A stretch of DNA of 64,000 nucleotides, taken from NCBI GenBank assembly GCA_035221665.1, contig CM069155.1:29636001-29700000 (forward strand), in the 5' to 3' direction. The notes under the pieces are model-generated. The model was given only the letters and a program-made list of their open reading frames with translations, did no database searches and was not told the origin of the DNA. Below are positions 13,232-62,794 of the stretch, one piece after another. How positions within the stretch are numbered: position 1 is the first letter of the stretch; the number at the start of each line of letters is the position of its first letter. Source of the stretch: Okamejei kenojei (taxonomy: Eukaryota). Both the position numbers and the translations under genes were made by a program.

Positions 13232-13393
13232 GTTTAAAGTAAGAACTGCAGTCGCTGGAAAAAAATATGGAGAATCTCAGCCGGTGAGGCAGCACCTATG
13301 GAGCGAAGGAATGGTTGAAGTTGCGAGATCAGTCTAAAGAAGGGTCTCGACCCGAAACGTCACCCATTCCTTCGCTCCATAGATGTTGCCCAT
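13232..13393. mobile_element. Short Penelope-derived hammerhead element, head-to-head form, with TSD
   Basis: 12-bp TSD ACATTACCTATC at 13220-13231 and 13394-13405. Core ctaaagaagggtctcgacccgaaacgtc at 13334-13361 has a G-to-A change in CTGA. Confidence 0.8.
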
Positions 13394-19985: not shown

Positions 19986-20449
19986 TTATAATTTAATAAT
20001 TTTAAAGTGGAGGTTGACAGATCCTTGATTGGTACAGGAGTACGGATATAAGATGAGAATGGTGTTGAGAGGTTAAGATAGATCGGCCATGATAGAATGG
20101 CGGAGTAGCTTTGATGGGCCGAATGGCATAATTCTGCTCCTAGAACAATGAATTTATGAACTTATGAATTATGTGTCTGGTTCTTGAATGCCTTGGTGAC
20201 CATTTTGTTGAGGATATATGTAAGGGGACCGATTAGAATGCATTCTGTAGACGGCACAGACCGTGGGCTTGTTGCACTTGTGGCAAAGAGAGACAAAGGA
20301 TGGGATTATGTCATTGAAATAAAAACTTAATCCTGTAAAATGTCGGACTTCTTGAATGTTGTCGGAGCAGAAACCATCACGTGTGGCAAGGATATCATCA
20401 CAGCCATATTGCTCTTTTTTGAGCAATATCAGACAAGTCTTGAGAATTT

Positions 20450-20708
20450 GGTATTGAGTGGGGAACTGTAATGAGATTGAATGGAGATAGATTATTTTGG
20501 TTCCAACACGATCTTTATTGTAGAAAATACGAGAAAATATTAATGAAGCAGTAAATCTCACGCCTTTACGCTCATTAAACCTGAACTGATATAAACGGCG
20601 GTTAATAATAAGAAGTCATATGAATTTCTGCTCTTCCAGGTTTCTGTTTGCTGCAGCTGGTCTGGGGAACTCGAGTCCTGGCACCTTTCGGGGTCATGAT
20701 CTAATGTG

Positions 20709-20777
<69 letters not shown>

Positions 20778-20992
20778 GAAGGTGAGTTCTGTGAGCTGGA
20801 TCGAAACATTCATTTATACAATCAATAAATCTGATCTCGACACAAAAGTAAACTCCGCTTTAAAACTAATTTTCTTCTTTGTACTCAAGAAACAGTGAGC
20901 TATTTATTAAATCAAGGGCCGAGCTAGTCTCGTATATCTCATGAATTTAGATATCCTAATAGACATCTGGAAGTGTAGTGGGGTCAACGCTG
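20450..20992 (+). repeat. Non-coding block duplicated at 22725-23270
   Basis: tattgagtggggaactg / tattgagtggggagctg, atgaatttctgct and taaatcaagggccgagcta / taaatcaagtgcccagcta occur colinearly in both copies. Confidence 0.85.
20712..20775. repeat. (TC)n microsatellite, about 32 units
   Basis: Direct reading. Confidence 0.97.
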
Positions 20993-22716
20993 AAACAAAG
21001 AGTAGGAATAAATGGCGAGTGTACTGCCGAAAGGCTCCGTGCTAGGACCGCAACTATTTACAATATGTATTAATGATTTAGATGATGGGATTAAAAGTAA
21101 CACTTACAAATTTGCAGATGCACAAAGTTGGGTGGCAGTGTGAAGTGGAAGAGTATGCTCGGATGTTCCAGGGTGACTTAGACAGGTTGAGTGAGTGGGC
21201 AGATGCATGGCAGATGCAGTATAATGTAGATAATTGTGAGTTTATCCACTTTTAGCCACAAGGAGGCAGATTATTATCTCAATTGTGTCATATTAGGAAA
21301 AAGGGAGTGCAGCGAGACCTGGGTTTCCTTGTACACCAGGTAGTGGAGCAGGCAGTGAAGAAAGCTAATGGCATGTTGCCCTTCATAACGAGAGGATTTG
21401 AGAAGAGGAGGAAAGAGGTCCTTCTGCAGTTGCACAGGGCCCTGGTGAGACCACATCTCGAGTATTGTGTGCAGTTTTGGTCTCCTAATTTGAGGAAGGA
21501 CATCCTTGCTATTGAGGCAGTGCAGCGTAGGTTCAATCCCAGAACCAGGGGCCACAGTCTAAGAATAAAGGGTGGGGGGGGGGGGGGTGAATTTAAAAGT
21601 TAGATAGAGCTCTCGGGGCTAGTGTAATCAAGGGATATGGGGAGAAGGCAGGCACGGGTTACTGATGAGAAACAAAGAGTAGGGATTAACGGGTCCCTTT
21701 CAGAATGGCAGGCAGTGACTAGTGGGGTACCGCAAGGCTCAGTGCTGGGACCGCAACTATTTACAATATACATAAATGATTTGGATGAAGGGATTCAAAG
21801 TAAACATTAGCACATTTGCAGATGACACAAAGCTGGGTGGCAGTGTGAGCTGTGAGGAGGATGCTATGAGAATGCAGCATGACTTGGACAGGTTGGGGGA
21901 GTGGGCAGATACATGGCAGATCCAGTTTAATGTGGATAAATGTGAGGTTATCCACTTTGGTAGCAAAAACAGGAAGGCCGATTATTATCTAAATGGTGTC
22001 AAGTTGGGAAAAGGGGAAGTACAACGGGATCTGGAGGTCCTTGTTCATCACTCAATGAAAGTAAGCATGCAGATACAGCAGCAGGCAGTGAAGAAAGCGA
22101 ATGTCATGTTGGCCTTCATATCAAGAGGAGTTGTGTATAGTAGTCTGCAGTTGTACAGGGCCCTAGTAAGACCTCACCTGGAGTATTGTGTGCGGTTTTG
22201 GGCCACTAATTTGAGGAAGGACATTCTTGCTATTGAGGGAGTGCTGCGTAGGTTTACAAAGTTAATTCCCAGGATTTCAGGACTGTCATATGCTGAGGGA
22301 ATGGAGCGGGTGGGCTTGTATACTCTGGAATTTAGAAGGATAATGGGGAATCTGATTGAAACATATAAGATTATTGAGGGTTTGGCCACGCTAGAGGCAG
22401 GAAACATGTTCGCGATGTTGGGGCCAGGGCCAGAACCAGGGGCCACAATTTTAAAAATAAGGGGTAAGCCACTTAGAACGGAGATGAGGAGACACATTTT
22501 TACACAGAGAGTTGTGAGTGTGGAATTCCTCTGCCTCAGAGGGTGGTGGAGGCCGGTTTTCTGGATACTTTCCAGATAGAGCTAGATAGGGCTCTTAAAG
22601 ATAGCGGGGTCAGGGGATATGGGGAGAAAGCAGGAACGGGGTACTGATTGGGAATGATCAACCGTTGTCACTTTGAATGGCTCCGGCACCTATCGTCTAT
22701 TGTCTATTGTCTATTA
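20993..22716 (+). mobile_element. Two tandem CR1 3' fragments (20993-21665, internally deleted; 21668-22716)
   Basis: ORF 21776-22579 has [27 protein letters not shown] and GLYTLEFRR. Tail (ctattgt)n near 22697-22715. Confidence 0.92.
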
Positions 22717-25254: not shown

Positions 25255-25374
25255 GTGAGTATTATACGTGCCCGGACAATCGATTTATTTCCGTGCACCA
25301 TTAAATTGTGATCTTCTCTCACACTTCAACTATCTTATTGATTTTATATTTTTCTGATCTTGATCTTTTCTCAG

Positions 25375-25716
25375 ATGTAAACGCGGCAATTACTATAAGT
25401 CAACCGACTTCGATGTCCACCTCTACGGGACAGAACATGCAAATAACCTGCACCATATCGGGCTCCAGTTCAGGTGGTAACTATGTCTCCTGGTACCAAC
25501 AGATCCCTGGCAAAACTCCAAAGTATTTAATGTACTATTATTCCGGCAGCATTGACAAAGGCACGGACATTCCAGACCGTTTCTCCGTCTCAATGTCAGG
25601 CAACACTGCAACATTCGCAATATCTAACGTTCAAGCGGGTGATGCTGCAGACTATTACTGTGCAAAATGGGATAGTGGTTTACATTTCGGTAAAGGAACG
25701 AGGCTGGGTATTGGTG
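25375..25716 (+). CDS. IGL: Ig light chain cluster A, germline-joined VJ exon
   Basis: Acceptor ttttctcag. Reads ITC, WYQQ, DYYC-AKWDSGLH-FGKGTRL. GTAAGT donor at 25717. No RSS or spacer between V and J. Confidence 0.97.
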
Positions 25717-27218
25717 GTAAGTGAAATATATTATTTGAGTGGCGCCATGGATTATTTTGTAAATTTAAGTGAAGTGTTTGCTGAATTAACGTCGTAATTC
25801 ACGCAAAATGGAGGAACAGCAACTCATATTTCATTTGACCAGCTTACAATCCAGCTGTAAGACTACTGATTTCTCTAACTTCAAGTAACTTTGAAGTTAG
25901 TCGTTGTAATAGTTTCAATGTTTTCCTGGTGAGTTGCATTGTCTGTAACTCGTTTTCACCGAGGCCACAGTTAAACATGGGTTAATTCCTTTATCGTCGT
26001 TATTTTTTTGCATATCTTTCTATCATTTTTCCTTATCTCTTATATCACCGTCTATATATCTCGCGTTCCTTTCCCCTGAATCTCAATCTGAGTAAGGGTC
26101 TCGACCCGAAACGTCGCCTATTCCTTTTCTCCAAAGATCCGCTAAGTTACTCCAGCGTTTTGTGCCTATCTTGATTTTGCCAGGTTTATCTCGATGTACT
26201 TGGTGCAGTGTATAGATTCCTGCTTTACAGACGCTCAGGCTCCGAGTTCACTAGCTCATAGCTCCGTGAAATAACTGGAAAAGGGAGCTAAAAATCAATT
26301 TCTCAACTCGGCACCCAGTGAACCTTTCGCAGATGAGAGCCACATTTCTACCTCAGAGCCATTTCAAATTATTCAGGACCCGAACAAGACTAGGCCATTC
26401 GGGCCCTACGCCCTCAATATTAGAGAAGAAATCGCGCACCTGTGATTCCAAGCTTTATGTGTGTTTACAGTTCACATTTTACCAATTTATTTAGGCTGTA
26501 CTTCAAGAACTTGAATGTTCTCGAAAATGTGAGGCGACTCTCCAATTTTTCATTCCCGACCATTAATTATCGCGTGTTTCCCAATGCTAATTATTGGCAC
26601 TATTTTTCTGGATTTTAGCGTAGTCATGTATATTGGGATTGACGTAGAATTGAAGTGCCCCCTAAATAAAATGCGGGTTGTTAAATAATTTGCAGAAGTA
26701 TTCACAGCGAAATTTTTCAACTCGCGAAAATAATTGTCCAGATTGCTTGGTTAATGGGGGTCAGCAACGTTGACATTCAACTTTGCTGAAATTCTGGTTG
26801 ACATGTCTAACGGGTATATCGTTTCTCCTCAAAATGTGAAAAGAGAACGTTTCGCACATTTCCCTCAGGAAATAGGTTGCTTTTGTTTAAACTGGAGACG
26901 TGTAGTGAAAATCACTTTTATAAAGTTATATTAATGTGTTCTATTTTATAAAACTGTACAGCCATAATATATCACAATTGTTTCCGTGTTGTTTATGGAT
27001 AGGACAGACAGCATCTATCCTAGTTGCTTTCACGTTGTTTATTCATTGTTTATCCGATTTTAAGAAACACACACACATACACAATTGTTTGAAATGGGTC
27101 GAGAATAAAACGATTTTCTACAAATGAATAAATTAATGCTCTAATGTGATGAATTTTCTGAAATATGATATCTCGACGATAGCAATTCTCCAATTAAACG
27201 TGACTTCTTGTTAAACAG

Positions 27219-27542
27219 ATCCTCGAGCACCGATCGTGACGGTTCTCCCGCCTTCCGCTGATGAAGTTACCTCAAAGGGCACCGCCACTCTGGTTTGTTT
27301 GGTGAGCGGCTTTAACCCGGGTTCGGTGGTCGTTGAGTGGACAGTCGACGGCGGTACAAAAAATAGCGGCGTTGAGACCAGCCCGATCCAGCAGGATAAG
27401 GACAACACGTTCAGTCTTAGCAGTTACCTGACTCTGCCAGCCTCAGACTGGAATTTACACGAGCTTTACTCCTGTGTGGTTAAAACACCAGACTCAGGCA
27501 AACCCACTTAAGACAAATATCGTGAGATCCAGCTGTATCTGA
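27219..27542 (+). CDS. IGL: Ig light chain cluster A, constant exon (lambda-like type II); +1 frameshift at 27482-27485 as written
   Basis: ag|AT CCT gives DPRAPIVTVLPPS...ATLVCLVSGFNPG...YSCVVK. Removing one A from TAAAAC restores HQTQANPLKTNIVRSSCI-stop (TGA 27540-27542). AATAAA at 27807-27812. Confidence 0.9.
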
Positions 27543-28963: not shown

Positions 28964-29215
28964 AAATGCCTACAATCCGGATCATTTAGAAAAGGTAAGA
29001 CACAAACAGCTGGAGCAACTCAGCGGGTCAGAAAGCATCTCTGGAGAAAAGGAATCGGTGACGTTTTGGGTCAAGGCCCTTCTTCAGACTGTCTGAAGAA
29101 GAATCTCGATCCGAAATGTCACCTATTCATTTTCTTCACAGATACTGTCTGACCCGCTAAGTTACACCAGCTTTATGTGTCTACCTTTTCTAAATGATCC
29201 GGATTGTAGACATTT
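28964..29215. mobile_element. Palindromic head-to-head pair of hammerhead modules with inverted outer 34-bp arms
   Basis: Minus core 29060-29087 and plus core 29093-29120. 28964-28997 is the reverse complement of 29182-29215 (33/34). Confidence 0.85.
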
Positions 29216-29926: not shown

Positions 29927-32900
29927 GAAACATAGAAAATAGCTGCAGGAGGAGGCCATTCGGCCCTTCGAGTCAGCACCGCCATTCATTATGATCATGG
30001 CTGATCGTACCCTATCAATTACCCGTGCCTGCCTTCTCCCCATATCCCTTCATTCCACTAGCTCCTAGAGATCTATCTAACTCTCTCTTAAATCCATCCA
30101 GTGATTTGGCCTCCACTGCCCTCTGTGGCAGGGAATTCCATAAATTCACAACTCTCTGGGAGAAAACGTTTTTTTCTCACCATAGTCTTAAACGACCTCC
30201 CCTTATTCTAAGACTGTGGCCCCTGGTTCTTCACTCGCCCAACATTGGGAACAATTTTCCTGCATCTAGCTTGTCCTGTCCTTTTATAATTTTTGATGTT
30301 TCTCTAAGATCCACCCTCATCCTTCTAAACTCGAGTGATCACAAGCCTAGTCTTTTCAATCTTTCCTCATATGACAGTCCCGCCATCCCAGGGATCTATC
30401 TCGTGAACCTACGCTACACTGCCTCAATCACAAGGATGTCCTTCCTCAAATTAGGAGACCAAAACTGTACACAATACTCCAGATGTGGTCTCACCAGAAC
30501 CCTATACAACTGCAGAAGAAAATTCTTTACTTCTGTACTGAAATCCTCCTGTTATGAAGGCCAACATTCCATTAGCTTTCTTCACTGCCTGCTGTACCTG
30601 CACGCCAACTTTCAGTGATTGGTGTACAAGGACACCCAGGTCTCGCTGTACCTCCCCCTTACCTAACCTAACCCCATTAAGCTAATAATCTGCCCCTTGT
30701 TTTTGCCGCCAAAATGGATAACCGCACAGTTATCTTATTATACTGCATCTGCCACGCATCTGCCCACTCACTCAACCTGTCCAGGTCACCCAGCAAGCTC
30801 CCAACATCCTCTTCACAGTTCACACTGTCACCCAACTTTGTGTCATCCGCAAACTTGCCAGTGTTGCTCCTAATTCCCTCTTCCAAATCATTAATATATA
30901 TGGTAAGCAGTTGCGTCCCCAACACCGAGCCTTGCGGCACTCTACTCGCCACTGCCTGCCATTCTGCCGTTCACTCCTACTCTTTGCCAACCAATTTTCT
31001 ATCCATGTCAACACCCTACCCCCAATACCACCTGCTCTAATTTTAGTCACCAGTCTCCCGTGCGGGACCTTATCAAAGGCTTTCTGAAAGTCTAGATACA
31101 CAACATCCACTGGCACCCCTTCATCCATTTTACTTGTCACATCCTCAAAAAATTCCAGAACATTAGTCAAGCATGATTTCCCTTTCATAAATCCATGTTG
31201 ACTTGGACTAATCCTTTTATTGCTATCCAAATGCCCCATTATTACCTCTTTAATAATTGACTCCAGCATCTTTCCCACCACCGAAGTCAGGCTAACTGGT
31301 CTGTAGTTCCCCGTTTTCTCTCTCGCTCCTTTCTTGAAAAGTGGGATAACATTAGCTATCCTCGAATCCACAGGAACCGATCCTGAATCTATTGAACATT
31401 GGAAAACGATCACCAATGCGTCCACTATTTCTAGAGCCACCTCCCTGAGGACCCTGGGATGCAGACCATCAGGCCCAGGGGATTTATCACCCTTCAGTCC
31501 CATTAGCCTACCCAATACTATTTCTCGCCTAATGAAAATTTCTTTCAGTTCCTCTACCCCCTTAGATCCTCTCTCCTCCAGTACATCAGGGAGATTGTTT
31601 GTGTCTTCCTTAGTGAAGACAGATCCGAAGTACCTATTCAACTCTTCTTCCATTTCCTTGTTGCCCATAATAATTTCACCCGTGACTGTCTTCAAGGGAC
31701 CCACATTTTACTTTGCTACTCTTTTTCCCTTAAAATATCTAAAGAAGCTTTTACTGTACTTCTTTATATTCCTGGCCAGCTTCCCTTCATGCTCAATATT
31801 TTCAGCCCGTATTGCCCGTTTTGTTTCCTTCTGTTGTCCAACGTGTTGCCCATTTTGTTTCCTTCTGTTCCCAATCCTCTGGCTTCCGGCTACTCTTTGC
31901 TGTGTTATTCACCTTTTCTTTTCGTATTATTCTATCCCTCACTTCTCTTGTCAGCCACGGTTGCTTCATACTCTCCTTAGAATCTGTCTTCCTTTTTGGA
32001 ATGAAATGATCATGCGTCTTCCGGATTATGCCCAGAAATTCCTGCCATTGCTGTTCCACCGTCATTCCTGCTAGGATCCCTTTCCAGTCTACTTTGGCCA
32101 GCTCCCCTCTCATGCCTTCATAGTCACTTTTGTTCAACTGCATCACTGCCAATTCCGATGTATCGTTCTCCTTCTCAAATTGCAGGTTAAAACTAATCAT
32201 ATTATGATCACTGCCTTCAAGCGGTTCTTTTACCTCGAGTTCTCTTATCATATCAGGTTAATTGGACCACACTATATCCAGAATTGCCTTTTCTCTGGTT
32301 GGCTCCATTACAAGCTACTCTAAGAATCCATCTCGGAGGAATTCTACAAACTCTCTTTCTTGGGGTCCTGAACCAACCTGATTTTCCCAGTCTACCTGCA
32401 TATTGAAATCCCCCATCACCACAGCGGTATTACCTGTGTTACATGCCAGTTTTAACTTCTGCTGCAACGTACAACATACATCCGGGCTACTATTTGGGGC
32501 TCTGTAAATAAAACCAATTAGCGTCTTCTTGCCTTTACAATTCCTCAACTCAATCCACGGTGACTCTACCTCGTCAGTCCCCATGTCTTCCCTCGCAAGG
32601 GACTGAATTTCATCCCTCACCAGCAGAGCTACCCCGCCTCCTCTGCCAACCTGCCTGTCCTTTCTATAGGATGTATAACCCTGAATATTAAGTTCCCAGG
32701 CCTGATCCTCCTGCAGCCACGTCTCAGTAATCCCCTCAATGTCATATCTACCAACCTCTAACTGAGCCTCAAGCTCATCTACTTTACTTCTTATACTTTG
32801 CGCACTCATGTACAATAATTTTAATTCCTTACGCATCTCACCTTTCACATCGATCCCTATTACACTTGGCCATACTCTCCTATCCCTTTGTGAGCTTCCT

Positions 32901-33926: not shown

Positions 33927-34110
33927 AGATACAACATGCTAGAGCAACTCAGCGGGATAGAGAGCATATCTGGACAGAAGGAATTTGTGACCTTTCCGGT
34001 CGAGATCCTTCTTCAGACCCGAATCGAGAGATGCTTCCTGTCCCGCTGCGTTACCCGAGCATTTTGTGACTATCTTAGATTTAAACCAGCATCTGCAGTT
34101 CCTTCCTACA
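33927..34110. mobile_element. Short hammerhead element, head-to-head form, with TSD
   Basis: TSD CGTTAAC(C/T)AACACT at 33913-33926 and 34111-34124. Degenerate minus core at about 33989-34016. Confidence 0.8.
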
Positions 34111-34927
34111 CGTTAACTAACACTGTCGGTGTATGTTTTTTTAGCTAAATCAATCCCTATCCATTGATTTATTTGGGGGATTAATGTATTGTTGGCCAGA
34201 CAATGCATCGATTTCCCATCCCTATCTATTGCTCTAATACCCATAGTGAAGATACATCGCAAAGTGAATCAAACGGAGATTAAATATCCAGGAGAGAGAG
34301 AGAAAATTACAAGAAAATAAAGACGGGGGTGGGGGAGGCCGCATTTTTTCCTGTGTCGTAATGTAATTACATTATTTTAGCGTTGCCTTCCGAAGATTTC
34401 TAGATGTGTGCGCCAGGACCGGCGAGAAAATCATGCACTTACACTCATGCCACACATAAATGCTGTCGGCCTCTCTTGCTCATCATCCGCGTGAATGCTG
34501 TAAAACACGATGTCAGGGCCATAACTTCATTCCTATCCACGATGGCCCACGATGTCTGTGCGAACCAATTGCCAATTTACACTAATGCAGTCTGCCTGAG
34601 ATAAATAATGTCTATATCCCTCCATTCACTATCTGTTCACGTGCTTGCCTAAACGCCTCTTGGACCTTGCTGGGTATCTACTTCCACCGCTTCTTCTACC
34701 AAAGCGTTCCACACTTTCTGTTTAAAAAAGACATGCAAAGTGTACCCCATTCAAACTCTCCTACCTTAAAGCTAGAAAATATATAATACAATACATCGGC
34801 CTGGAAAGGAAACTCTGAGTATCAACCGCTGATAGAGAGAGAGAGACGTGTGATAATGATATCGCAAAGCGTAATGTTTCTGGAGAAGTTTTCCAACTTA
34901 TATTGAACTGGTCCATTTTATAACCAG

Positions 34928-35213
34928 ATCCTAAGGTCGGTTCTGCCACCTTCGCCGAACGAAGTCACGGTAAATGGACCCGCTACCCTGGTGTGTTCGG
35001 TAAGCGGGCTTAATTCGCGGGATGTAAACATTGAGTGGACTGCAGACAAAACTGCGAGAAGGAATGGCGTTGAGACCAACCGGGTCCAGCAGGAGACGGG
35101 CAGCCCTCTGCCAGCCTCAGATTGGAAACTACACACGCTTTCCTCCTGAGTGGTTAAATACGAGACTAAAGACAAATCCCATTACGTAAAACATCGCGAT
35201 CCATTTTATTTGA
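34928..35213 (+). pseudogene. Orphan Ig light chain constant-exon pseudogene
   Basis: Acceptor aaccag|ATCCT as in cluster B. Reads SVLPPSPNEVTVNGPATLVCSVSGLN...EWT...GVETNRVQQETG. Has a frameshifting 5' deletion, loss of the FSxSSYL strand, and TGA in place of the second Cys (35147-35149). No V exon seen upstream. Confidence 0.9.
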
Positions 35214-35486
35214 TGGTGAAAAACTTGCGCGCTGAACTGGGAAACTTGGATCATGCATTTCTTCCAGGTGACAACAGATCGAAATGTTACACAAATTAGG
35301 GGGGAACCCTCGGGAGAACATGGATAGGTGACGTTTAGAGTCGGGACCTCTCTTCTGACTGATTGTGGTGGGGGTGGAGGAGAAAGCTGGAAAAGAGGTG
35401 GGGTATGACTAAGCCTCACAAGTAGGTGGATACAGTGGGGCGGCGGGTGATTGGCTGATGGATAAGATAAGAAAAGACAAAATAAG

Positions 35487-36637
35487 AAATTAGTATACAA
35501 ACTTAATGCATACGGTATTAGGGGTTCAGTATTGATGTGGATAGAGAACTGGCTGGCAAACAGGAAGCAAAGAGTAGGAGTAAACGGGTCCTTTTCACAA
35601 TGGCAGGCAGTGACTAGTGGGGTACCGCAGGGCTCAGTGCTGGGACCCCAACTATTTACAATATATATTAATGATCTGGATGAGGGAATTGAAGGCAATA
35701 TCTCCAAGTTTGCGGATGACACTAAGCTGGGGGGCAGTGTTCGCTGTGAGGAGGATGCTAGGAGACTGCAAGGTGACTTGGATAGGCTGGGTGAGTGGGC
35801 AAATGTTTGGCAGATGCAGTATAATGTGGATAAATGTGAGGTTATCCACTTTGGTGGCAAAAACAGGAAAGCAGACTATTATTTAAATGGTGGCCGATTA
35901 GGAAAAGGGGAGATGCAGCGAGACCTGGGTGTCATGGTACACCAGTCATTGAAAGTAGGCATGCAGGTGCAGCAGGCAGTGAAAAAAGCGAATGGTATGT
36001 TAGCTTTCATAGCAAAAGGATTTGAGTACAGGAGCAGGGAGGTTCTACTTCAGTTGTACAGGGTCTTGGTGAGACCACACCTGGAGTATTGCGTACAGTT
36101 TTGGTCTCCAAATCTGAGGAAGGACATTATTGCCATAGAGGGAGTGCAGAGAAGGTTCACCAGACTGATTCCTGGGATGTCAGGACTGTCTTATGAAGAA
36201 AGACTGGATAGACTCGGTTTATACTCTCTGGAATTTAGGAGATTGAGAGGGGATCTTATAGAAACTTACAAAATTCTTAAGGGGTTGGACAGGCTAGATG
36301 CAGGAAGATTGTTCCCGATGTTGGGGAAGTCCAGGACAAGGGGTCACATCTTAAGGATAAGGGAGAAATCCTTTAAGACCGAGATGAGAAAGACTTTTTT
36401 CACACAGAGAGTGGTGAGTCTCTGGAACTCTCTGCCCCAGAGGGTAGTTGAGGCCAGTTCATTGGCTATATTTAAGAGTGAGTTGGATGTGGCCCTTGTG
36501 GCTAAGGGGATCAGAGGGTATGGAGAGAAGGCAGGTACGGGATACTGAGTTGGATGATCAGCCATGATCATATTGAATGGCGGTGCAGGCTCGAAGGGCT
36601 GAATGGCCTACTCCTGCACCTAATTTCTATGTTTCTA
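35487..36637 (+). mobile_element. Young 5'-truncated CR1 with an uninterrupted ORF2 C-terminus (35532-36548)
   Basis: 338-aa open ORF with [25 protein letters not shown] and YSLEFRRLRGDLIETYK. Tail tttctatgtttcta. Sits inside a minus-strand Penelope pLTR remnant. Confidence 0.95.
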
Positions 36638-37769
36638 AAAGTTGTGATCTAAGGATAGCAGTTCGAATCGTGAAGACAGAAGAAGGAATATAGGGGGAAG
36701 GGGAGGGAGAGTGGGGATAAATAGTGTGTCAATACGGGTGGGGCACAAGCAGGGGAGGGGAAGGAAGAAAAGAAATCAAAAACAACAAATAAATCAATCA
36801 ATAAATAAATAAATAAATACGCAACTAAGGACATAAACGAATACACGAGTAGATAAATAAATAGAAAAATAAAAAAATATATAAAATAGATGGGCAAATA
36901 GGCGAATATGTAAATAAATAAACGGAACGGTGGATAGATACATAAATAAATAACCAAAAACTTCGCAGTTTTAATTTTCATCAAATATTATGTATTGGAA
37001 ACTCTGTTATTGTAAACGCTGTCTATCCAAATAATGTACTGGTTCAAGTTTAATTGACTTTAGTGCTGCGTGTTCAACAACATTGAATAAAGGCAAATAA
37101 GTGATTCGTGCTTCCTCGTTTTTTTTTGGTCTTTTTTCCATGAGTCAATGTACTCAATGAATTGATCTCGGATGCAATGTTTTTTCCGTTTCATTTTATT
37201 ATGATGCAAAGTTCTTGAACAGGAATTTAACTGGTGTTGATTCCCCACGCTGTTTAAATATTGGCACTAATTTCCTCCCATTTTTTTTTACCATGAATCG
37301 GGATGTGCAACAGTCTGGATTTCCGATTGGTTGTCCGTGTCCACAGTGCGGCTTTCGTGGTCGAGCGAATGCAGCGACGGTAATTGGCGATGTCATTGCG
37401 CAAGGGCGATTTGATAGCAGCCCTTCCAACACGCTTTGCGTCATCCAGGGAAAGCATCGAGCGTCCGCACTGGACAATTGGGCAGGATGAACAAAATCCA
37501 AATCTCGATTGTCCATCCCTGAACACCTGCATAAAATAATGAGTTTGACACTAAAAGCTGGAGCAACTCAGCGGGTCAAACAACGTATCTAGAGAAAGGG
37601 ATAGAGCCATAGAGTCATACAGTCATACAGTCAAACAGTATGGAAACTGGCCCGACGGCCCAATTTCCCCACACCGGGCCTAACCAGCCCCACCTGCCCG
37701 CAGTAACCCCTCAGATTCCTATTAAATATTTTTCCCTTAACCGTAAACCTATTTTACTCCTCCTGTTTC

Positions 37770-38768
37770 CTCCAAACACAAGGCGTAGCTATGGGCACAT
37801 GCATGGGCCCCAGCTACGCTTGCCTCTTTGTCGGGCACGTCGAACACTCCTTGTTCTCGGCGTACCAGGGCCACATCCCCGACCTCTACCTCCTTTACAT
37901 CGACGATTGCTTTGGTGTCATCTCCTGCACCCACACACAACTGACTGACTTCATCCATTTCACCACCAACTTCCATCCGGCACTCAAATACACTTGGACC
38001 ATTTCCGACATTTCCCTACCATTCCTTGACCTCACCATCTCTATTGCAGGTGATACACTCCTGACCGACATCCACTACAAACCAACTGACTCCCACAGCT
38101 ACCTGGACTACTCTTCCTCCCACCCTGCTTCCTGTAAGGACTCCATCCCCTATTCCCAATTCCTCCGTCTACGCCGCATCTACTTCCAGGATGAGGTGTT
38201 CCACACCAGGTCATCACAAATGGCCTCATTCTTCAGAGAACGGGGATTCCCCTCACCCACTATAGATGAGGCTCGCACCAGGGTCTCCTCCATATCCCGC
38301 AACACTGCCCTCGCTGCCCATTCCCCCACTGGCAACAAGGGCAGAGTCCCCCTGGTCCTCACCTTTCACCCCACCAGCCAGCAAATGCAACACATAGTCC
38401 TCCGCCAGTTTCGCCACCTCCAACGTGACCCCTCCACTCGCCACATCTTCCCATCTCCCCCCCCTGTCTGCCTTCCGCAAAGACCGCTCCCTCCGCAACT
38501 CCCTTGTCAATTCTTCCCTTCCCTCCCGCTCTACCCCTTCCCTTGCAACCGCAAGAAATGCTACACTTGTCCCTTCACCTCCCCCCTCCACTCCTTTCAG
38601 GGACCCAAGCAGTCCTTCCAGGTCCAACAGAGGTTCACCTGCACCTCCTCCAACCTCATCTACTGCATCCGCTGCTCCAGATGCCAGATGATCTATATCG
38701 GTGAGACCAAGCGGAGGCTTGGCGATCGTTTCGCCGAACACCTCCGCTCGGTCCGCAAAAACCAACCC
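37770..38768 (+). mobile_element. Penelope-like element, RT C-terminal half and GIY-YIG endonuclease
   Basis: GVAMGTCMGPSYACLF, YIDD, FLDL, YKPTDSHSYLDYSSSHP, CTSSNLIYCIRC and YIGETKRRLGDRFAEH in the open 332-aa ORF 37791-38789. Confidence 0.95.
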
Positions 38769-40114: not shown

Positions 40115-40585
40115 TAAAATTGAAAATTCAATGTTCAAGCCGTTGGGTTGTGGACTACCCGGATGGAATACGAGCTCCTGTTGCAACAGTTTGACTTTAG
40201 CTTCACTCCGGACGTGGAAGACAGAAACATCCTTGTGGAAATGCGATGGAGAATTAAAATGACTGATAACCAGACGATCCGTGTGGCCGCAGCAGATTGA
40301 GAGCAGATGCTCAACAAAGCTGTCACCTAATCTGCTTTGGTTTTACTGATGTATATGTGGCCATATCGGAAACACCAGATGCAGATTTACACAAAAGGAC
40401 ACAGAGAGCTGGAGTAACTCAGCGGGGCAAGCAGCATCTCTGGAATACATTGATAGATGATGTTTCGGGTCGAGAAACTTCTTCAGGTCTGAAAAAGAGA
40501 TCAGGGCCGAAACGTTACCTGTCCACGTGCTCAAGGAATACTGCATGTACTGCTGGTGTACTCCAGGAGTTTGTGTCTTTCCTAG
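40115..40585. mobile_element. Minus-strand Penelope tail fragment followed by a head-to-head hammerhead pair (~40459-40516)
   Basis: aaattcaatgttcaagccgttgggttgt is the reverse of the PLE QPNG-NI-F end. gatgtttcgggtcgagaaacttcttcag then gtctgaaaaagagatcagggccgaaacgtt. Confidence 0.7.
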
Positions 40586-40899
40586 GTTTGTTCTTGCTTG
40601 TTTCCCTATTATTTTCTTATCATGTTTCTTCTAATAGGCATTACATTTTCCATTAACAGAGTTACTTCAACGATTTGTATTGCCGCAGATTTGTTTCAGT
40701 GATGTGCGATTCTATGTTGTTTATTCTATATAAGTTGTGTTTGTGGTGAAGGATGTGAATTGTAGATGCATCACTAATCCGTTAAGCCATTTTTTCCTTC
40801 ATGATGCCACTCTTTCTGAATCATATTGCAGCTGCACATCAGATGAGACGAAGGGTATCCAAGTACAGTTGAATTGTGCATTTATAAAATTTACACATG

Positions 40900-44846: not shown

Positions 44847-44960
44847 GTGAGTTCCTTTTTTCATCAAAATTAGTTTTCTCCTCGAGTGCTTCTCAGCGGG
44901 AGGTTTCTCTCGTGTTTTAATTACAAATCATTGTTATCACTGTACTCTTTATTTCCCCAG

Positions 44961-45308
44961 ATTTACGCGCAGAAGTTACAGTGAGCCAGCCGCTTTCGAT
45001 GTCCATCACTCCGGGGCAGAATTTAGAAATAACATGCACCATGTCCGGCGCTACTTTAGGGAATGACAATGTTTACTGGTATCAGCAGATTCCTGGACGT
45101 ACTCCGCGGCTTTTAGTCTATTATTGGTCCAGCAAGGACACTCCTGGTCGAGGTCCGGGAGTTTCAGAGAGGTTTTCCGGATCAGTGTCAGGCAACACGG
45201 GGACTTTCACACTATCTAACGTTCAATCAGACGACGCTGCCGATTATTACTGCGCTATGTGGAAAAACGTTTTAAGATTTGCAAAAGGAACACGAGTGGC
45301 TGTTGGCA
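44961..45308 (+). CDS. IGL: Ig light chain cluster B, germline-joined VJ exon
   Basis: Acceptor tttccccag. Reads ITC, WYQQ, DYYC-AMWKNVLR-FAKGTRV. GTAAGT donor at 45309. No RSS. Confidence 0.97.
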
Positions 45309-47046
45309 GTAAGTAAAATATTTCTTTCTAACGTTCTGTAAGTTCTTATTAACAATAATTAATTGCGTTATCTTTCAATCGGGTGAGAATATCGATGATT
45401 ATCCTTCATATGTTTACTTGTGTACTTCTATTGTAAGCTCCCACCCCTCCTTACCACTTCCCCCCTCAGAATATTGTATTCTGTCCTGATGCAAAACTCA
45501 TAGTGGTCCTGAGATAGATTGCATTAGCTATTAGTGTCATGCGTGTCATATGTTGAACCGAGTTTATTTTCAGCACTTGCTCGTACAAGTTCAATCGAAC
45601 AAAGCCAGTTGCACCCTTTATTATCGGGTTGACATTGCCGAACAAACATAATTATTTTACCTATTTACGGAGAGCATGCGCCCCAGTAAAAACTGATGAT
45701 TTTGACAAGACTCTTTGAAGCCAGTCACATTATACGGGTTGTAGTCACCATCACCCCGTCCCACAAATACCCCAGATTACTAGCTGGTCGTTTTTTTTTA
45801 AAAGTCCAATTGGAATGGAAACTGACTGCTCTTGACGACCCTGTAACATAGCAATACACCCATCAGTCAATCTGCGCATTGAGAGGAAACGTTTGGTTGA
45901 AGGAAATGAACCACTGGAGCTGACCAGACAATCGAGTGCTCGCTTTCACACAATTAAAATTCATTATTTGCGGAGAGCGGAACAAGCATATTGTTTCAGC
46001 TCCACACGTCAGAGCTAGCCTGTTTTGTTAACTGTTTTATCTCCCCTGAAGCTGCCTATTCGGTTGGGTAACCCCAGCGTTTTCAGTTTTTATATCTGGT
46101 TTCTAGTATATACAGGGTTTTCTTTGTTGATCAGAAAGGGTTTTATTCTGCTACGACCGACTATTGAAAGTTTTTTTCTCAAATATCTGAAATTTATGAT
46201 TTAATCTGAACCATCTAATCTCTCTGTGAGCTATGAAAAGATCACTGCATCACCTTGTAAATTTAAAAAATCAACTGTATATTTTAGCTTCAATGTATTC
46301 TCAAATCTTCGGCCAGGAAAAAGATCTGGTGGTCTTCTGACATGAAAACAGTAAAGGGCAATTAACCCTTGCAATAGTGATCATGCGCATCTGCAAACAT
46401 TAAATATGTTGCGTTGCTAATAGTAGTTCTGTACTATATCTGGTTGATATAGTGCTGCCCGAACTGTTTCCCTATTCAGACAATGAAAGAAGCAGTTCCC
46501 TTTCAAAAACGTCAGATCGTTTAGGATGGAGCAACACGTCGAGAGATGAATGAGGTTAGATATAACTAAGATTATAGTTTAAAATGTGTACAACACTGCA
46601 CAGATCACTGGTATAACCCGGTGCAGCAGGCTACGTCACAGCTCCAATATTTGCGACCGCGTTCAATCCCCTCCTAGGGTACTGTCTGTTGGGTTTGCAA
46701 GTTATTTCGTCACAAAATCAATTTCCTTGCACTGCTCCAAGACATGATGTAAGGCTAATAGGCAACTCTAAGTAATCTCTTACTGCAGCAAACTGTCGTA
46801 AGAAGAGGTGTTGAGAGAAGTAGCTAGACTGCAGTCAAATAATGGCGAGGAAGTTCATACCGAAGATAGACATAGAATGGAGGGGCAGTATGACTGAATT
46901 ATCTGCTACGAGTTGGCACGGACCCGACCGCCCGTTTTTCCTCAAACGGCCTAATAAGTACACAAATCCACCTTTGCGTGAGAGCGCAACGGAAATCGAG
47001 ATCAATCCCTTTCTTGTCTCGAATGAAGCAAAATGAGATTTTATTA

Positions 47047-47228
47047 GACCGAAGATAGACACAAATGCCGGAGTAAATCAGTGGACCAGAGAATCCGCAT
47101 CTCCGGAGAGAAGGAATGGGTGACGTTTCGAGTCGAGAATAGTTCTGATGCCTGTCCCGCTGAGTTACTCCAGCATTTTGTCTATCTTCGGTATAAACCA
47201 GCATCTGCAGATCCTCCCTACATATTAC
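47047..47228. mobile_element. Short head-to-head Penelope-tail element in the J-C intron of cluster B, with TSD
   Basis: 13-bp TSD TGAGATTTTATTA at 47034-47046 and 47229-47241; partial minus-strand hammerhead (gacgtttcgagtcgag). Confidence 0.8.
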
Positions 47229-47426
47229 TGAGATTTTATTAAGGTAATGTTTGATTTATCCCGAAATCCTCATTGTAAATTATATTTCAGTAGCTAGATA
47301 CACGATGTGAATGTATTATTTTGAAGCGGGTGGACGTAAAGGCTATTACATTGGTTATTACATTGACCTTTGATCCGAAAGTAGTGCTTCAATTATTATT
47401 TAGCTGCGATCTTTTTTTAAAACCAG

Positions 47427-47749
47427 ATCCTCGTCCCCCTGCCGCATCCGTTTTACCACCTTCAGCAGATGAGATGAGAGTAAAGGGCACCGCCACCCTG
47501 GTGTGTTTGGTGAGCGGGTTTAATCCGGGTGCTGTGGAAATTCAGTGGACTGTGGACGGCAGTGCGAGAAGTGATGGCATTGAGACCAGCCGGATCCAGC
47601 AGGAGACGGACAACACGTTCAGTGCGAGCAGTTACCTGACTCTACCAGTCTCAGACTGGAAATTACACGAGCTGTACTCCTGTGTGGTTAAACACGAGAC
47701 TCAGGCAAACCCAATTCGGGTGGATATCGCGAAATCCAGCTGTATGTGA
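47427..47749 (+). CDS. IGL: Ig light chain cluster B, constant exon (lambda-like type II), intact
   Basis: aaccag|AT. Reads PRPPAASVLPPS...ATLVCLVSGFNPGAVEIQW...YSCVVKHETQANPIRVDIAKSSCM-stop, with both domain Cys and the penultimate interchain Cys. AATAAA at 48025-48030. Confidence 0.97.
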
Positions 47750-50022: not shown

Positions 50023-51348
50023 CATAGAAACATAGAAACATAGAAAATAGGTGCAGGGGTAGGCCATTCGGCCCTTCGAGCCGACTCAGTATCCTGTACC
50101 TGCCTTCTCTCCATACCCCCTGCCTGATCCCTTTAGCCGCAAGGGCGACATCTAACTCCCTCTTAAATATATCCAATGAACTGGCCTCAACTACTTTCTG
50201 TGGCAGATAATTCCACACACTTCACCACTTTGTGTGAAAAAAAAATCTCATCTCGGTCCCAAAAGACTCCCCCCTTATCCTTAAGCTGTGACTCCTTGTT
50301 CTGGACTTCCCCAACATCGGGAACAATCTTCCTGCATCTAGCCTGTCCAACCCCTTAAGAATTTTGTAAGTTTCTAGATCATCCCCCTACAATCTTCTAA
50401 ATTCTAGCGAGTACAAGCCGCGTCTATCCAGTCTTTCTCATTATGAAAGTCCTGCCATCACAGGAATCAGTTTGGTGAACCTTTTCTGTACTCCCTCTAT
50501 GGCAAGAATGTCTTTCTTCAGGTTAGGAGACCAAAACTGTACGCAATACTCCAGGTGTGGTCTCACTAAGGCCCTGTATAACTGCAGTGGAACCTCCCTG
50601 CTCCTATACTCAAATCATTTACTATGAATGCTAACATACCATTCGCTTTCTTCACCGCCTGCTGCACCTGCATGCTTACTTTCAATGACTGGTGTACCAT
50701 GACACCCAGGTCTCGTTGCATCTCCCCTTTTCCTAATCGGCCACAATTCAGATAGTAGTCAACTTTCCTGTTCTTGCCACCAAAGTGGATAACCTCACAT
50801 TTATCCACATTCTACTGCATCTGCCATGCATTTGCCCATTCACGCAGCCTATCCAAGCCCTTGCAGCCTCCTAGCATCCTCCTCACACCTAACACTACCC
50901 CCCAGCTTCGTGTCATCCGCAAGCTTGGAGATGTTGCATTCAATTCCCTCGTCCAAATCATTAATATATATTGTAAATATCTGGGGTCCCACAACTGAGC
51001 CTTGCGCTGCCCCACCAGTCACTGCCTGCCATTCTGAAAAGGACCCGTTTACTCCTACTCTTTGCTTCCTGTCTGCCAGCCAGTTCTCTATCCACATCAA
51101 TACTGAACTTCCAATACCGTGTGCTTTAAGTTTGCACATTAATCTCTAATGTGGGACCTTGTCGAAAGCCTTCAAAAATTCCAGATATAACACATCCACA
51201 TGTTCTCCCTTATCCACTCTACTAGTTACATCCTCGCAAAATGCTATAAGATTCGTTAGACATGATTTACTTTTCAAAAATCCATGCTGACTTTGTCCAA
51301 TGATTTCACTACTTTCCAAATGTGCTGCTATCCCATCTTTAATTACTG
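50023..51348 (-). mobile_element. CR1 3' portion
   Basis: QHGFLKSKSCLTNL, KAFDKVPH, LADDTKLGG; (catagaaa)n tail at the left end. Same subfamily as 35487-36637. Confidence 0.92.
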
Positions 51349-52702: not shown

Positions 52703-54261
52703 GCGTATACGTTCGGAACTATTCACTTTCGCAACTGTTATATCCTTACTCCTTATCGCACACATTTTGTAGTTTCCACACAGACCTTTGTCCAACCATT
52801 TGCCAATCAACCCACCCCGCCTTATCTATATCCACCAATCCTTGCCAGATTCTGTCCCGCCAACAGCCCTCTTCCAACGTAAAGTGGAGATTGACAGGTT
52901 CTTAGAGAATGGAGGTGAGAGGTAAAATAGATCAGCGATTATAGAATAGCGAAGCAGGTTCGATGGACCGAATGGACTAATTCTGCTGCCACGTCTTATG
53001 AATTAATCACCCCCCATCCCCACTACAATCCGAAATTTGAAGAAGGGTCCAGACCCAAAACGTCGCATATCCATGTTCTCTAGATGTGATGGTTCACCCA
53101 CTGATCTACTTCAGCACTTGTGTCTTTTATTTGTAAGGATTTATGCCGGTCGTAAGGATTTGGGAATAACCCCGATTCTGCTTTTGTTTGCACCCATGAT
53201 TCTGATAAACGCTTATCTCTGACAATAGCACGAATTGTGTACCAAGCAATTACTAGATTCTGTATGAATTTTAAAATGCAATAAACATGCATATCTGATT
53301 GACGTAAAGTCTTCAAGATTAGTTTTCAAATCCAATAACCTGCAAACTATCTAAAGCTTCTATGTTAATTAGTCAATTTCCGACGCCCAAATTTGTTTTA
53401 TGTGATTCTTAAAAACAGTAATAACCTTAAGTAAAATTGTATAACATTCATTTGGTTTGGTTCTACTTTCCCTGGCGTATTATGCACCCTCCGGAAACAA
53501 TCATCTGCAGCAAACAAACCACCACGCGTTTTGTGGAGTAGCACTCGGATATTGGAGCCGAGATTCTCAATTATCTTGAGCCGATGCTTCGATCGCTAGA
53601 AATCATGTTCCCTGAATTATTTCCCTCGAAGTTCCTTTTTGTGGAGTAACAAAAATGCATAGGTGAAACTTTGTCATGTTTGTGTCCAGTTCCCATAGTG
53701 ATCAAGGACACCTTTTGGTATTTTTATGTATACAATCTATTTGCCAGATCTGTGTCGTCTTAATTGACCATTGGCTGTCACATCTGGTCTCCTTAAGTAT
53801 CATCAGCACTGATTTCCGGTCAAATTCGAGCCTTCATTAAAGTCATTTAAAGGTATGTAAAAGAGTTCAGGGCACACACCCATACCCGCGACGGAACAGT
53901 TTGCATTACAAACCAGAACCAGACCTGATTATGCCTAGTCTCGGTTACCGGACAGCTGGCTTTCGATTCACCATAGATATGACCTCTGCACCGCGCGCTT
54001 TGATTTTTCTGCAACACGTTGTTGCTCCGGCACGTTATCCTAGAAAATCTGAGTGCATGCACCACTATTCTTATTTTGACAATGCACATCAATTCTTCAA
54101 ACAATTCTAATACATTAGTCAAGCGTAACCTTACGCCAACGTAAAGGACAGCTTTAAGGACTGCATCGGTGCTTTTCATCCTGCACTCAAATTTATTTGG
54201 ACCATCTCCGGCACCTCCCTCCCCTTTCTTGATGTCACAATCTCCATCACAGGAAATAGAC

Positions 54262-54358
54262 CAGTCTGAAGAAGGGTCTCGACCCGAAACGTCGCCTATC
54301 TCATTCGCTCCTTAGATGCTGCTGCACCCGCTGAGTTTCTCCAGCTTTTTGTGTAACC
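54262..54358 (+). mobile_element. 97-bp solo hammerhead mini-element nested in a Penelope ORF
   Basis: Perfect 14-bp TSD CACAGGAAATAGAC at 54248-54261 and 54359-54372. Confidence 0.9.
54266..54293 (+). ncRNA. Minimal type I hammerhead ribozyme motif, consensus copy
   Basis: CUGAAGA-A-[GGGU CUCG ACCC]-GAAA-CG-UC, with a palindromic ACGU helix III and a GUC cleavage triplet. Confidence 0.78.
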
Positions 54359-55649
54359 CACAGGAAATAGACTATTGACTGACGTCTATTACAAACTCAC
54401 TGACTCACACAACTATCTCGACTACATTTCTTCCCAACCTGCTTCCTGCAAAGGCTCTATGCCCTACTCCCTATTCCCCTATCTACGCCGCATCTGCGCC
54501 CAAGATGAGGTATTCTATACCAGGGCATCCGAGATGTCCTCATTCTTTTGAGAACGGTGGTTCCCCTCTTCCATCAAAGATGAGGCTCTGACTGGTGACT
54601 CCTCGGTACCCCGCAGCTCCACCCTTGCTCCCCCTCCCCCTAGCCACAACAGAGACAGAGTCCCGCTAGTCCTTACCTTCCACCCCATCAGCTGTCGCAT
54701 ACAACACATAATGCTCCGATATTTCCACCAGCTCCAACGGGATCCCTCCACTAACCACATTATCCTATCTCCACCGCTTCCACCTTCCGCAGAGACCGTT
54801 CCCTCCGCAACTCCCTGGTTAACTTATCCTTTCCCAGCCAAACCATCCTCTCCCCAGATACCTTACCCTGTAATCGCAGAAGATGCAACACCTGTCCCCT
54901 ATACCTCCTCCCTCGTCTCTGTCGAGGGCCCCCCACAGTCCTTTCAGGTCAGGCAAAGTTTCACTTGCACCTCCTCCAACCTCATCTACTGTATCCGTTG
55001 TTCAAGATGTGGACTCTTATACATCGGTGAGACCAAATGTAGACTGGGTCATCTTTTCACAGAACACTTTCACTCAGCCCGCCTGAACCGACCTGATCTC
55101 CCGATTACCGGACACTTTAATTCTCTTTCCCATTCCTACACAGAACTCTCTGTCCTAGGCCTCCTCCATTGTCAGATTGAGGCTAAACACAAATTGGATG
55201 AACAGCATCTCATAATCCGCTTGGGCAGCTTACAGCCCAGTGGTATGAATATTGATTTATCTCACTTCAGGTAGCCCCGGCATTCCCTATCTCGCTATCC
55301 CTCCCTACCCAAGTCGCACTAGCTTCTCGTATTCACCCGACAAACAGCTAACAATGGAATACATGTTTCCTTTATCATCTTTACTTTTTTGCATATATTT
55401 TATTCATTGTTCTTTATCTCTCCACATCATCTTCTATATCTCTCGTTTCCCCTATCCCTAACCAGAAGAAGGGTCTCGTCCCGAAATTGCAAGTCAGTTA
55501 ATCCAACGTCAGAGGTAGGGGATTTAAAAAGGCTTTCCTTTCCAATTGATGATCAGCATGACTTGTTGGTGGCAGATTTTTGTCTGACGATGTGAAATTT
55601 AAAAACTGATAATTAACATATTCATGAAGGCAGTGGCGTTAACGCCGTT

Positions 55650-60149: not shown

Positions 60150-60474
60150 GTTGTTCTTACCATAATGCTCGCACGTAGAGTTACACTATAGCTCAAGCAG
60201 AAATAATATTCTTAAAACTCCAACAAGACGACTGGAACAGCTCTACTACCCTATCCTCTGTTTTTGGTTCAAAACCAAATGTTCCTTCAATACGCCGAAT
60301 TTTAATCGACATTGATAGCAAGGTGAGCATTAGTATGCACTGGTGAGCTTCTTGAATCAGGGAAGTGTTCTAGCGATAGGACCCAAATACTGCTATTGGA
60401 AAGGGATTTCCAACACATTGGCCCAGCAATCGCAAAGCATAGCAATGTATTTCGCACTCATCACTCTTGCTAGA

Positions 60475-60562
60475 TATAAGGGTCACGATCCGAAACGTCG
60501 CCCATTCCTTCTCTCCATAGATGCTGCCTCACCCGCTGAGTTCCTCCAGCATTTTTGTCTAC
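60475..60562 (+). mobile_element. 5'-truncated solo hammerhead mini-element with TSD
   Basis: 14-bp TSD TCACTCTTGCTAGA at 60461-60474 and 60563-60576; contains aagggtcacgatccgaaacgtc. Confidence 0.88.
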
Positions 60563-61829
60563 TCACTCTTGCTAGACAAGTCACAGCCGATGACGAGTGT
60601 GCATTATGCACACCCTTTGCTCTTATCCTGATCAGGCACGGAGTTGTTGTCCGTGTGTTCGAGGTAAATAATTGGAATGTATTTTGCGTATGGCCAAGAG
60701 AGTCGTCGCTATATATTGTTACTTGGAGGGGATGAATATTTAGAGTGAGAAGAGTATCAAACAGCGGATTATTTTCTTTTGGATGTAGTTCAACTATTGA
60801 TTTTTGTTTGAGCTGCATGAAAACAGGCAGGGAATTGTCCAGTGTATCCAGTTTATCATGATAAAGCGTTCATGTGGAGAGATCGGAGGAGAAATTAGCC
60901 AAGGCAAGGCACATTGGTAATAGGCTATATGGCAATATTTTGAAATTTTCGACATTCTTTTGCCTTTTTTTTTGTTGATAGCTTTGAGCACTGATTCATC
61001 TGGCGTTACTACTCAACATAAAGAGAAAAGAGCGCTGCCGATACAACTAGAGCGATTTAAGTTGCTATATAAAATCTGCGTTCATCAGATCAAATAGATG
61101 GCAACGCTGGATGCGTATAAATATAATTTCAGATGTCGGTTGAAGTTAGACAGAATTTATACCATAGCAATCCAAGCACGTGCAGCCCACGACGTATTTA
61201 ATATATAAAAATCACCAGCAGATCCTTGGTCGATTAAACATATTTCTCATTGTTTCTACTCAATTTAAGTGAATTGCCCGTGCAAAGTCAGTGAACAGTT
61301 GTGCAGCTAGCTAGCATGCTTTCCAGAGTTACAGCGGTTTTGACGGTGCACAATCCGAATTGACACCCAAATTTGCAAATTCGTAAATAATTTAGCAGAC
61401 AATTGATTCTTCGCATTGTGCTTTCAAAGATTTCCTACACACCATCTTCACCAGAATATTTACCATTTTTAAATACAATGTGCAACTAAAAGGGTGAAGG
61501 TACATGTCGCGTACAGTAGGTCGTGCACAGTAGTGCGACACCATTTTGTTCAGCACCTGCTGCAATGTATCCCTTCATTTTTCAAGAGTGAATGAACAGT
61601 CTATAGAAATTAGGTTGAGGTTATTCGATGAATTGAATTTAGGACGCATGCCGTGCAACTGCACAGCAAAAGATTCAGAATATATTACAAAGAATTATTG
61701 TGCATCTCCTTTCAAATGAAACAACATCTTTTGTGTGCTTAAGACCATATTAAATTGGCCCGAGATAAACAACGACTCGACACCAAATCCTTATTTACTC
61801 GAAAGTATGGAAATAACTTGACACAGAAG

Positions 61830-62033: not shown

Positions 62034-62158
62034 GTGAGTATTTTACTTCCACCGACATAATATTTAATCTCGAATACGATTAAAAGTTTCTATTGCTGAT
62101 ACTTCTGTTGTTTATCTAATAATAGTTAATGCTCTATATTTTCTGGTTTGTTTTCCAG

Positions 62159-62503
62159 GCATAAATGCGCTAGTTACACTAAATCAGCCACCTTCAATGT
62201 CCACGTCTCCGGGGCAAAACGTGGAAATATCCTGTATCGTGACTGGTGGCAATTTAGGTAGTAATTATGCTTCCTGGTACCAGCAGATTCCCGGAGCGGT
62301 TCCGCGGTTTCTGTTCTACTATTACTCGGGCAGCAGCATTACTAGAGGCTCGGGAGTTTCTGACCGTTTCTCCGGATCAGTGTCAGGCAACACTGCAACA
62401 TTGACAATAGCGAATGTGCAGTCTGCGGACGCTGCGGACTACTACTGTGCTGCGTGGATAAGTGCTTTATTCTTCGGCAAAGGAACGAGGCTGGGTATTG
62501 GCA
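62159..62503 (+). CDS. IGL: Ig light chain cluster C, germline-joined VJ exon (C exon presumably beyond the window)
   Basis: Acceptor ttttccag. Reads ISC, WYQQ, DYYC-AAWISALF-FGKGTRL. GTAAGT donor at 62504. The J-C introns of A and B are 1502 and 2118 bp; only about 1497 bp remain in the window. Confidence 0.97.
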
Positions 62504-62794
62504 GTAAGTAAACTATCTTCTACCTATGGTTTATTGATACAGCTATGATTTTTTTTTTTTTGTCGCTGATTGATGTTTCCATTAAAAGGCGTTTAAAGCT
62601 GATTTTTAAAGAATACCCGACTAAGATCGAATCTCCTTTGGCAAATTTGTTGACAACATCAATGAAAGGACGAAATGACTGTGCAGCTGTTATCTTTTTA
62701 TTTCTTAATTACTTTTCGGACGATGAGCTAACAATGACCAAGCCAGGGTACGAATAAAACCGACCGTATGGAAACGCGAATTGACAATAGAGTG

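Follow-up and report, generated by a model that had tools for sequence, protein, structure and literature searches.

Short hammerhead-bearing insertions in the Okamejei kenojei genome are probably 3′ ends of a Neptune-type Penelope-like element

A stretch of 64,000 nucleotides of Okamejei kenojei DNA (hereafter the window) holds pieces of roughly 100 bp that carry a hammerhead motif and lie between short direct repeats. Are such pieces a mobile family in their own right, or the ends of something larger? The sequence-only reading had described five single hammerhead-plus-tail units, each with its own target-site duplication (TSD), and offered two origins for them: a non-autonomous, retrozyme-like module or extreme 5′ truncations of Penelope. 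The insertions are real and belong to a known kind of element, not a new class. We favor, at a probability of roughly 0.6, the reading that the units are 3′ terminal-repeat (pLTR) ends of a Neptune-type Penelope-like element (PLE), primed inside the repeat and ended by run-off at the 5′ end of the RNA. That they are by-products of an autonomous family is very probable; the run-off step itself, judged from the copies alone, has somewhat better than even odds.

Positions below refer to a model in which position 1 is window 54262, the hammerhead boxes occupy positions 5–32, and the predicted cut falls after position 32. The TSDs claimed for the five places are real in every case (Table 1), but the description as single hammerhead-plus-tail units holds for the first of them only: the second is a solo that begins inside the motif, and the remaining three each consist of two partial copies, placed head to head within one TSD. 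The reported lack of a tRNA-like head and of poly(A) is borne out, with no tRNA gene and no such Rfam match in the window and no poly(A) in the cited units. The first unit shows 100% identity, across all 97 bp, with the ends of long copies L001, L002, and L004, and it splits the ORF remnant of an older Penelope copy identified by blastn and tblastn.

Table 1. Features of the Penelope-derived insertions in the window
Feature	Window positions	Strand	Remarks
Left TSD	54248..54261	.	14 bp; microhomology of its last 3 bases to the sequence naturally upstream of the element
Solo pLTR end, young subfamily 'A'	54262..54358	+	Positions 1–97, short 3′ site
Right TSD	54359..54372	.	14 bp, exact
Predicted minimal type I hammerhead motif	54266..54293	+	CUGAAGA box, unpaired A, helix II, GAAA, palindromic ACGU; predicted cut after 54293
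Older Penelope copy	54174..55486	+	72–75% DNA identity to subfamily A
Solo unit	60475..60562	+	Positions 11–97, without CUGANGA box; 14-bp TSD at 60461–60474 and 60563–60576
Head-to-head double	13232..13393	.	Minus arm 22–128, plus arm 2–61; 12-bp TSD
Head-to-head double	47047..47228	.	Minus arm position 16 to short site, plus arm 55–132; 13-bp TSD
Head-to-head double	33927..34110	.	Minus arm position 3 to short site, plus arm 47–132; 14-bp TSD, 1 mismatch
Subfamily A ORF fragment, RT thumb to GIY-YIG	37752..38768	+	94% DNA identity to ORF-linked copies

Searching the 64-kb window with a profile made from 257 sampled copies yields 30 matches to the module. Additional head-to-head doubles, with both arms reaching positions 2–5, lie at 29000–29190 and 40370–40592; neither has an exact TSD longer than 9 bp. 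TSDs occur above chance: an exact repeat of at least 11 bp flanks 78 of 467 module matches in 115 sampled 10-kb stretches, versus 60 of 1379 with swapped flanks (only 11 of 1379 for control repeats within 500 nt). TSD length is 11–17 bp in 53 well-bounded matches, where 11 is the floor of the search and doubles are counted twice.

The window also contains three repeated immunoglobulin light-chain clusters at a spacing of 17–20 kb, in each of which an open V exon is prejoined to J (25368–25721, 44957–45313, and 62152–62508; mutual identity 60–63%). C1-set (C) exons follow at about 27200–27500, 34900–35150, and 47381–47719, one of which looks decayed. Cartilaginous fishes typically have such joined V-J light-chain exons with C exons nearby. 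Both strands also hold many decayed RT-coding repeats of other kinds (1226–2991, 8992–11059, 19068–22681, 29995–31707, 35466–36548, and 50228–51347).

To what element do the units belong? A similarity search of the 2.76-Gb assembly with the 97-bp unit gave 43 matches, with 40 of 384 candidates scored, and the best 30 were fetched. Among these 30, 20 reach from 28 bp to more than 1.4 kb upstream, seven begin within 3 nt of position 1 (one being the window itself), and three are doubles; the non-self matches identical over the full 97 bp number three, all of them long copies. Walking upstream leads to a parent unit of ∼4.1 kb that codes for an RT and a GIY-YIG endonuclease. One 740-aa frame contains DKG and YIDD motifs and matches both RVT_1 (E = 1.1e-5) and GIY-YIG (E = 0.0016), with scores that do not reach the curated Pfam cut-offs. 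It has 1315 homologues at E ≤ 1e-20, the closest named ones coming from Chiloscyllium, Mobula, and Rhincodon at 62–74% identity. Ahead of the endonuclease is a CX4CxxC linker, and two cysteines lie between GIY and YIG. A CX2-5CxxC linker is given as the mark of Neptune or Nematis in PMC8557442, so we place the parent with these clades. It appears to be a Neptune-type EN+ PLE, though the linker is shared by Neptune and Nematis.

The first in-frame ATG of the parent ORF is ∼30 nt downstream of the tail. In one long copy (L216:1103–1280) this ATG, behind the tail, sits in a splice-donor-like sequence, and a 41-codon upstream frame begins inside the module. A direct 5′ pLTR, i.e., a partial tandem, is present in nine of the 24 loci examined, and in eight of these nine the sequence continues beyond position 1 of this repeat, which means that many templates reach further upstream. 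We did not count L182 as a partial tandem, as other copies carry ∼500 bp behind the pLTR that it lacks; its pLTR runs on into natural downstream sequence, and it is probably an internally deleted tandem. The family is very abundant. Sampling contigs 1–30 at round coordinates (115 stretches of 10 kb, 1.15 Mb) gives 474 matches to the module, which cover 3.9% of bases and extrapolate to ∼1.1 million matches genome-wide.

Several of these features recur in the EN+ PLEs of the Neptune clade as described in the relevant parts of PMC8557442: a single ORF with RT, CX2-5CxxC linker, and C-terminal GIY-YIG, partial tandems, 5′ truncation, an inverted 5′ copy, a pLTR hammerhead, and a 30–40-bp tail that is often on one end only. 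Here, in contrast to that description, a large share of copies is reduced to the last ∼97–133 bp with a fixed 5′ start. The Adineta Penelope elements in PMC3846280 likewise have solo pLTRs, head-to-head junctions, an optional tail, and TSDs; several of the solos described there lack TSDs and are ascribed to recombination or deletion, whereas the solos here have TSDs of their own.

The 3′ ends of TSD-bounded copies fall at about 93–99 or 133–137, i.e., at ∼97 and ∼133, ∼36 nt apart. Non-inverted matches divide into 133 with the short end, 124 with the long end, and 35 others. This two-site difference is the known PLE 'tail', whose origin PMC11167929 links to a pair of internal starts of the RT. 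The head-to-head pairs number 70, of which 52 can be classified: 41 long+short, six short+short, and five long+long. The long+short class exceeds the 26 expected (p = 1.8e-5). Such doubles would arise by priming from both nicks at different sites; alternatively, they may form by fold-back self-priming that is resolved at the short site.

At the 5′ end, all-against-all BLAST extents are blurred by chance extension and by doubles, so we replaced them with TSDs, one natural reference copy, and exact counts. TSD-bounded matches that start at −5 to 9 make up 19 of 78, one of them doubtful. Among 51 young matches (127 stretches), 12 start at −164 or further upstream, none between −163 and 0, 20 at 1–9 (four belong to another subfamily and three to one passenger insertion), and 19 at 13–86. 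Of the first 30 exact matches on contig 1, 19 start at −26 or further upstream and the other 11 at −4 to 2 (two of these being the two arms of a single insertion), with no start between. When exact matches to nested patterns, all ending at position 41, are counted across the genome, the number falls from 31,879 (start at 13) to 25,394 (5), 18,736 (2), 16,475 (1), 12,658 (−6), and 10,170 (−22), or 2.8, 9.6, 12.1, 3.7, and 1.4% per base over the successive intervals; these counts combine truncation, mutation, and subfamily variation, most of all from 1 to −6. Copy loss is 10–12% per base at positions 1–4 versus 1.4% upstream, a 7- to 9-fold spike. The excess loss between positions 5 and −6 amounts to ∼42%, and the remaining copies continue upstream. 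The boundary is spread over about −4 to 9 and is not a single base. Extreme 5′ truncation of Penelope near the hammerhead, one of the two origins proposed earlier, is supported by these data, and the stop is sharper than had been guessed: it lies at positions 1–5, the 5′ edge of the motif. Our search of the published literature, as distinct from Repbase and Dfam, found no account of this family or of a fixed 5′ start.

The boundary lies on a YCAGTC motif that most subfamilies keep despite otherwise different upstream DNA. The motif fits an initiator consensus, and it also makes a good splice acceptor when a pyrimidine tract precedes it. We rejected a spliced template: the last 300 nt upstream contain no donor consensus, the solo 5′ ends share no exon, and none of the 15 joints listed is GT-AG (193 others lie outside that list). 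Immediately before position 2, G accounts for 1,007 of 2,261 non-C bases (44.5%), versus ∼28% expected by base composition, and for 5.4% of all 18,736 copies. This excess is possibly the trace of a cap. In a random sample, the preceding base is G in eight copies, A in ten, and T in four, and the excess is not clear; among 13 TSD-resolved copies there are three G-type extra stretches, two of them from loci chosen for G.

Run-off at an RNA 5′ end would bring these ends together. The endonuclease would make staggered nicks, leaving the TSD of 11–17 bp; the element's own RT would prime at ∼97 or ∼133 inside the repeat and copy as far as the 5′ end of the RNA, which would lie close to position 2 at the hammerhead edge. 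Suppose that partial-tandem mRNA starts close to position 2 of the 5′ pLTR. An RT primed in that repeat would then produce a run-off copy of ∼97 or ∼133 nt, and one primed in the 3′ pLTR the usual longer, truncated copies; head-to-head doubles would result where both nicks prime, each at a different site. A promoter in the pLTR of PLEs has been published. Poseidon_Ac of Anolis is among the closest known counterparts: PMC11167929 describes two internal RT starts that define its tail, nicking and extension of both strands, and no need of cleavage. Its ORF starts within the hammerhead, as far as that account goes, whereas the first ATG here follows the tail, and it belongs to a different clade. 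The sharpness of the boundary, the conservation of its motif, and the G excess make run-off likely as judged from the genomic copies; the tandems that extend past position 1 weaken it.

The main rival keeps the same parent and the same priming but has the RT stall, in ∼40% of copies, at a protein that occupies the pyrimidine tract and the AG just upstream of the hammerhead. We consider such a barrier possible but doubtful. It would account for the excess loss at the boundary while the rest continue, for the passage of eight of nine tandems beyond the point, and for the retention of the pyrimidine tract and YAG across subfamilies; the D. virilis intron end, which PMC4209133 maps to helix I, is in keeping with it. 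It does not predict the G excess before position 2, and neither the missing donor consensus nor the unshared solo 5′ ends speak for it. The unit folds no better than its shuffles (z = 0.85), so no barrier of RNA structure is evident.

Do the solos form a lineage of their own? In subfamily A we compared 50 solo and 54 long copies over 83 columns, omitting seven duplicate loci and mixing random stretches with similarity-fetched loci. The three commonest haplotypes are shared (solo/long 12/13, 6/9, and 6/5), and the one solo-only haplotype has two copies and differs at a CpG. A nearest-neighbor test gives slight clustering of labels (0.548 versus 0.497, reached by 28 of 1000 shuffles; site 42, p = 0.03), which may reflect the bias of the first query. 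Across subfamilies, a tree of 67 solo and 53 long copies (55 inverted, 20 intermediate, and three passenger copies omitted; three relabelled solo by eye) requires 43 label changes versus 39.0 ± 2.8 when shuffled, i.e., the two kinds are mixed. The tests cover 104 and 120 copies over 83–100 columns, and such short alignments limit their power. Within them we find no separate solo family: solos share haplotypes with long copies and intermix with them. One apparent solo subfamily (L147, L048, and L094) proved to be a single insertion carried inside another repeat. This insertion is small, inverted, and flanked by a 12-bp TSD; the RT-coding repeat that carries it as a passenger (L094:6302–10000, L147:96–4937, L048:9564–10000) is present in three copies in 1.15 Mb, 95–96% identical over up to 3.7 kb.

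The sequence-only reading had named two findings that would speak against an independent module. One of them, intermixing without subfamilies of their own, is what we observe; the other, a smooth truncation distribution, is not, as the curve has its spike at positions 1–4. The proposal of a separate, non-autonomous retrozyme-like module is not supported, given the shared haplotypes and tree, the ends that lie off the cut site, and the lack of tandem arrays among the units.

The same comparison bears on a SINE-like origin, in which solos are transcribed from an internal promoter and re-copied in trans by the Penelope protein. Fixed ends and sheer numbers would suit such a family, pLTRs are described as able to act in trans in PMC3846280, and the slight label clustering points the same way; internal priming would moreover leave no copied flank to mark a solo source. 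Set against this are the single solo-only haplotype among 50 solos, the mixing of solo and long copies on the tree, the absence of any own lineage with diagnostic changes among the 104 and 120 copies, and the lack of a tRNA-like Pol III head. We regard this origin as quite improbable. Also unlikely is the specific version in which each solo retains an internal promoter, transcription begins at position 2, and re-copying through internal priming loses any read-through flank. If true, it would describe a ∼100-nt polymerase II parasite of Penelope with no poly(A), tRNA head, or ribozyme cut, making up a few percent of the genome and hidden since its parent also sheds new solos continually.

The hammerhead was recognized by its core boxes. 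CUGANGA, GAAA, NUH, G10.1-C11.1, and a palindromic helix III are all present in 54262–54358 but not in 60475–60562. By inspection helix I has only 2 contiguous bp, short of the usual 4–5 bp. One helix II pair reads U-A in 36, U-G in eight, C-G in one, and a mismatch in one of the sampled copies, and the core is retained in 58 of 240. An Rfam scan of the window gives no hammerhead family match and five weak chance matches, and the fold of the unit alone contains no hammerhead. Minimal metazoan PLE hammerheads, as portrayed in the pertinent sections of PMC4209133, have the same core boxes, unpaired base before helix II, G10.1-C11.1 pair, and palindromic helix III. Most lie dispersed, either singly or in close pairs on opposite strands, an arrangement which that paper attributes to truncated PLEs. 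Their helix I is usually 4–5 bp and their helix II 7–8 bp, whereas here helix II has 4–5 bp; a D. virilis variant in the same source has a helix I of 2 bp. Apart from helix I, the motif is a predicted minimal PLE hammerhead of this type.

Hammerhead-cut monomers that are circularized and re-inserted, as in non-LTR retrozymes, should end at the 32/33 cut, but the ends observed are at 1–5 and 97/133. In genome-wide exact counts, only 285 of 40,643 copies (0.7%) have a purine just before position 33. With no peak at the cut site, a retrozyme origin is largely refuted, and we hold it to be very unlikely. The units have a type I hammerhead motif, and animal retrozymes are reported to derive from pLTRs (10.64898/2026.07.22.740005); they resemble the non-LTR retrozymes outlined there and in PMC7229834 in being non-coding, in their relation to pLTRs, and in their longer TSDs. 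Those elements are tandem repeats processed by the ribozyme, whereas the units here lie dispersed, have ends that ignore the cut, and fall into no separate lineage. Of the five cited units, two are single and three are inverted doubles, and the short helix I and the frequent loss of the core likewise tell against this origin. Separately, we observed a short tandem array (G000:C2:137651884–137652107) of four matches, spaced 63–64 bp apart, to the module sequence that follows the cut site, beginning near position 33.

Ordinary random 5′ truncation with no preferred point, although PLEs are mostly 5′-truncated (as set out in PMC8557442) and 19 of the 51 young matches start scattered at 13–86, is scarcely credible given the spike in loss at positions 1–4 and the gap between the 20 starts at 1–9 and the 12 far upstream.

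The copies described here bear on how PLEs integrate and on what their hammerheads do. They display two apparent priming sites, one per arm in the doubles, together with a fixed 5′ stop at the hammerhead edge and no trace of ribozyme-cut templates. This genomic record supports what in vitro work showed for the anole element and gives a precise candidate for the RNA start site. Pieces of this kind are prone to misfiling as SINEs or retrozymes. With tens of thousands of near-identical young copies, the family offers a base-level record of integration.
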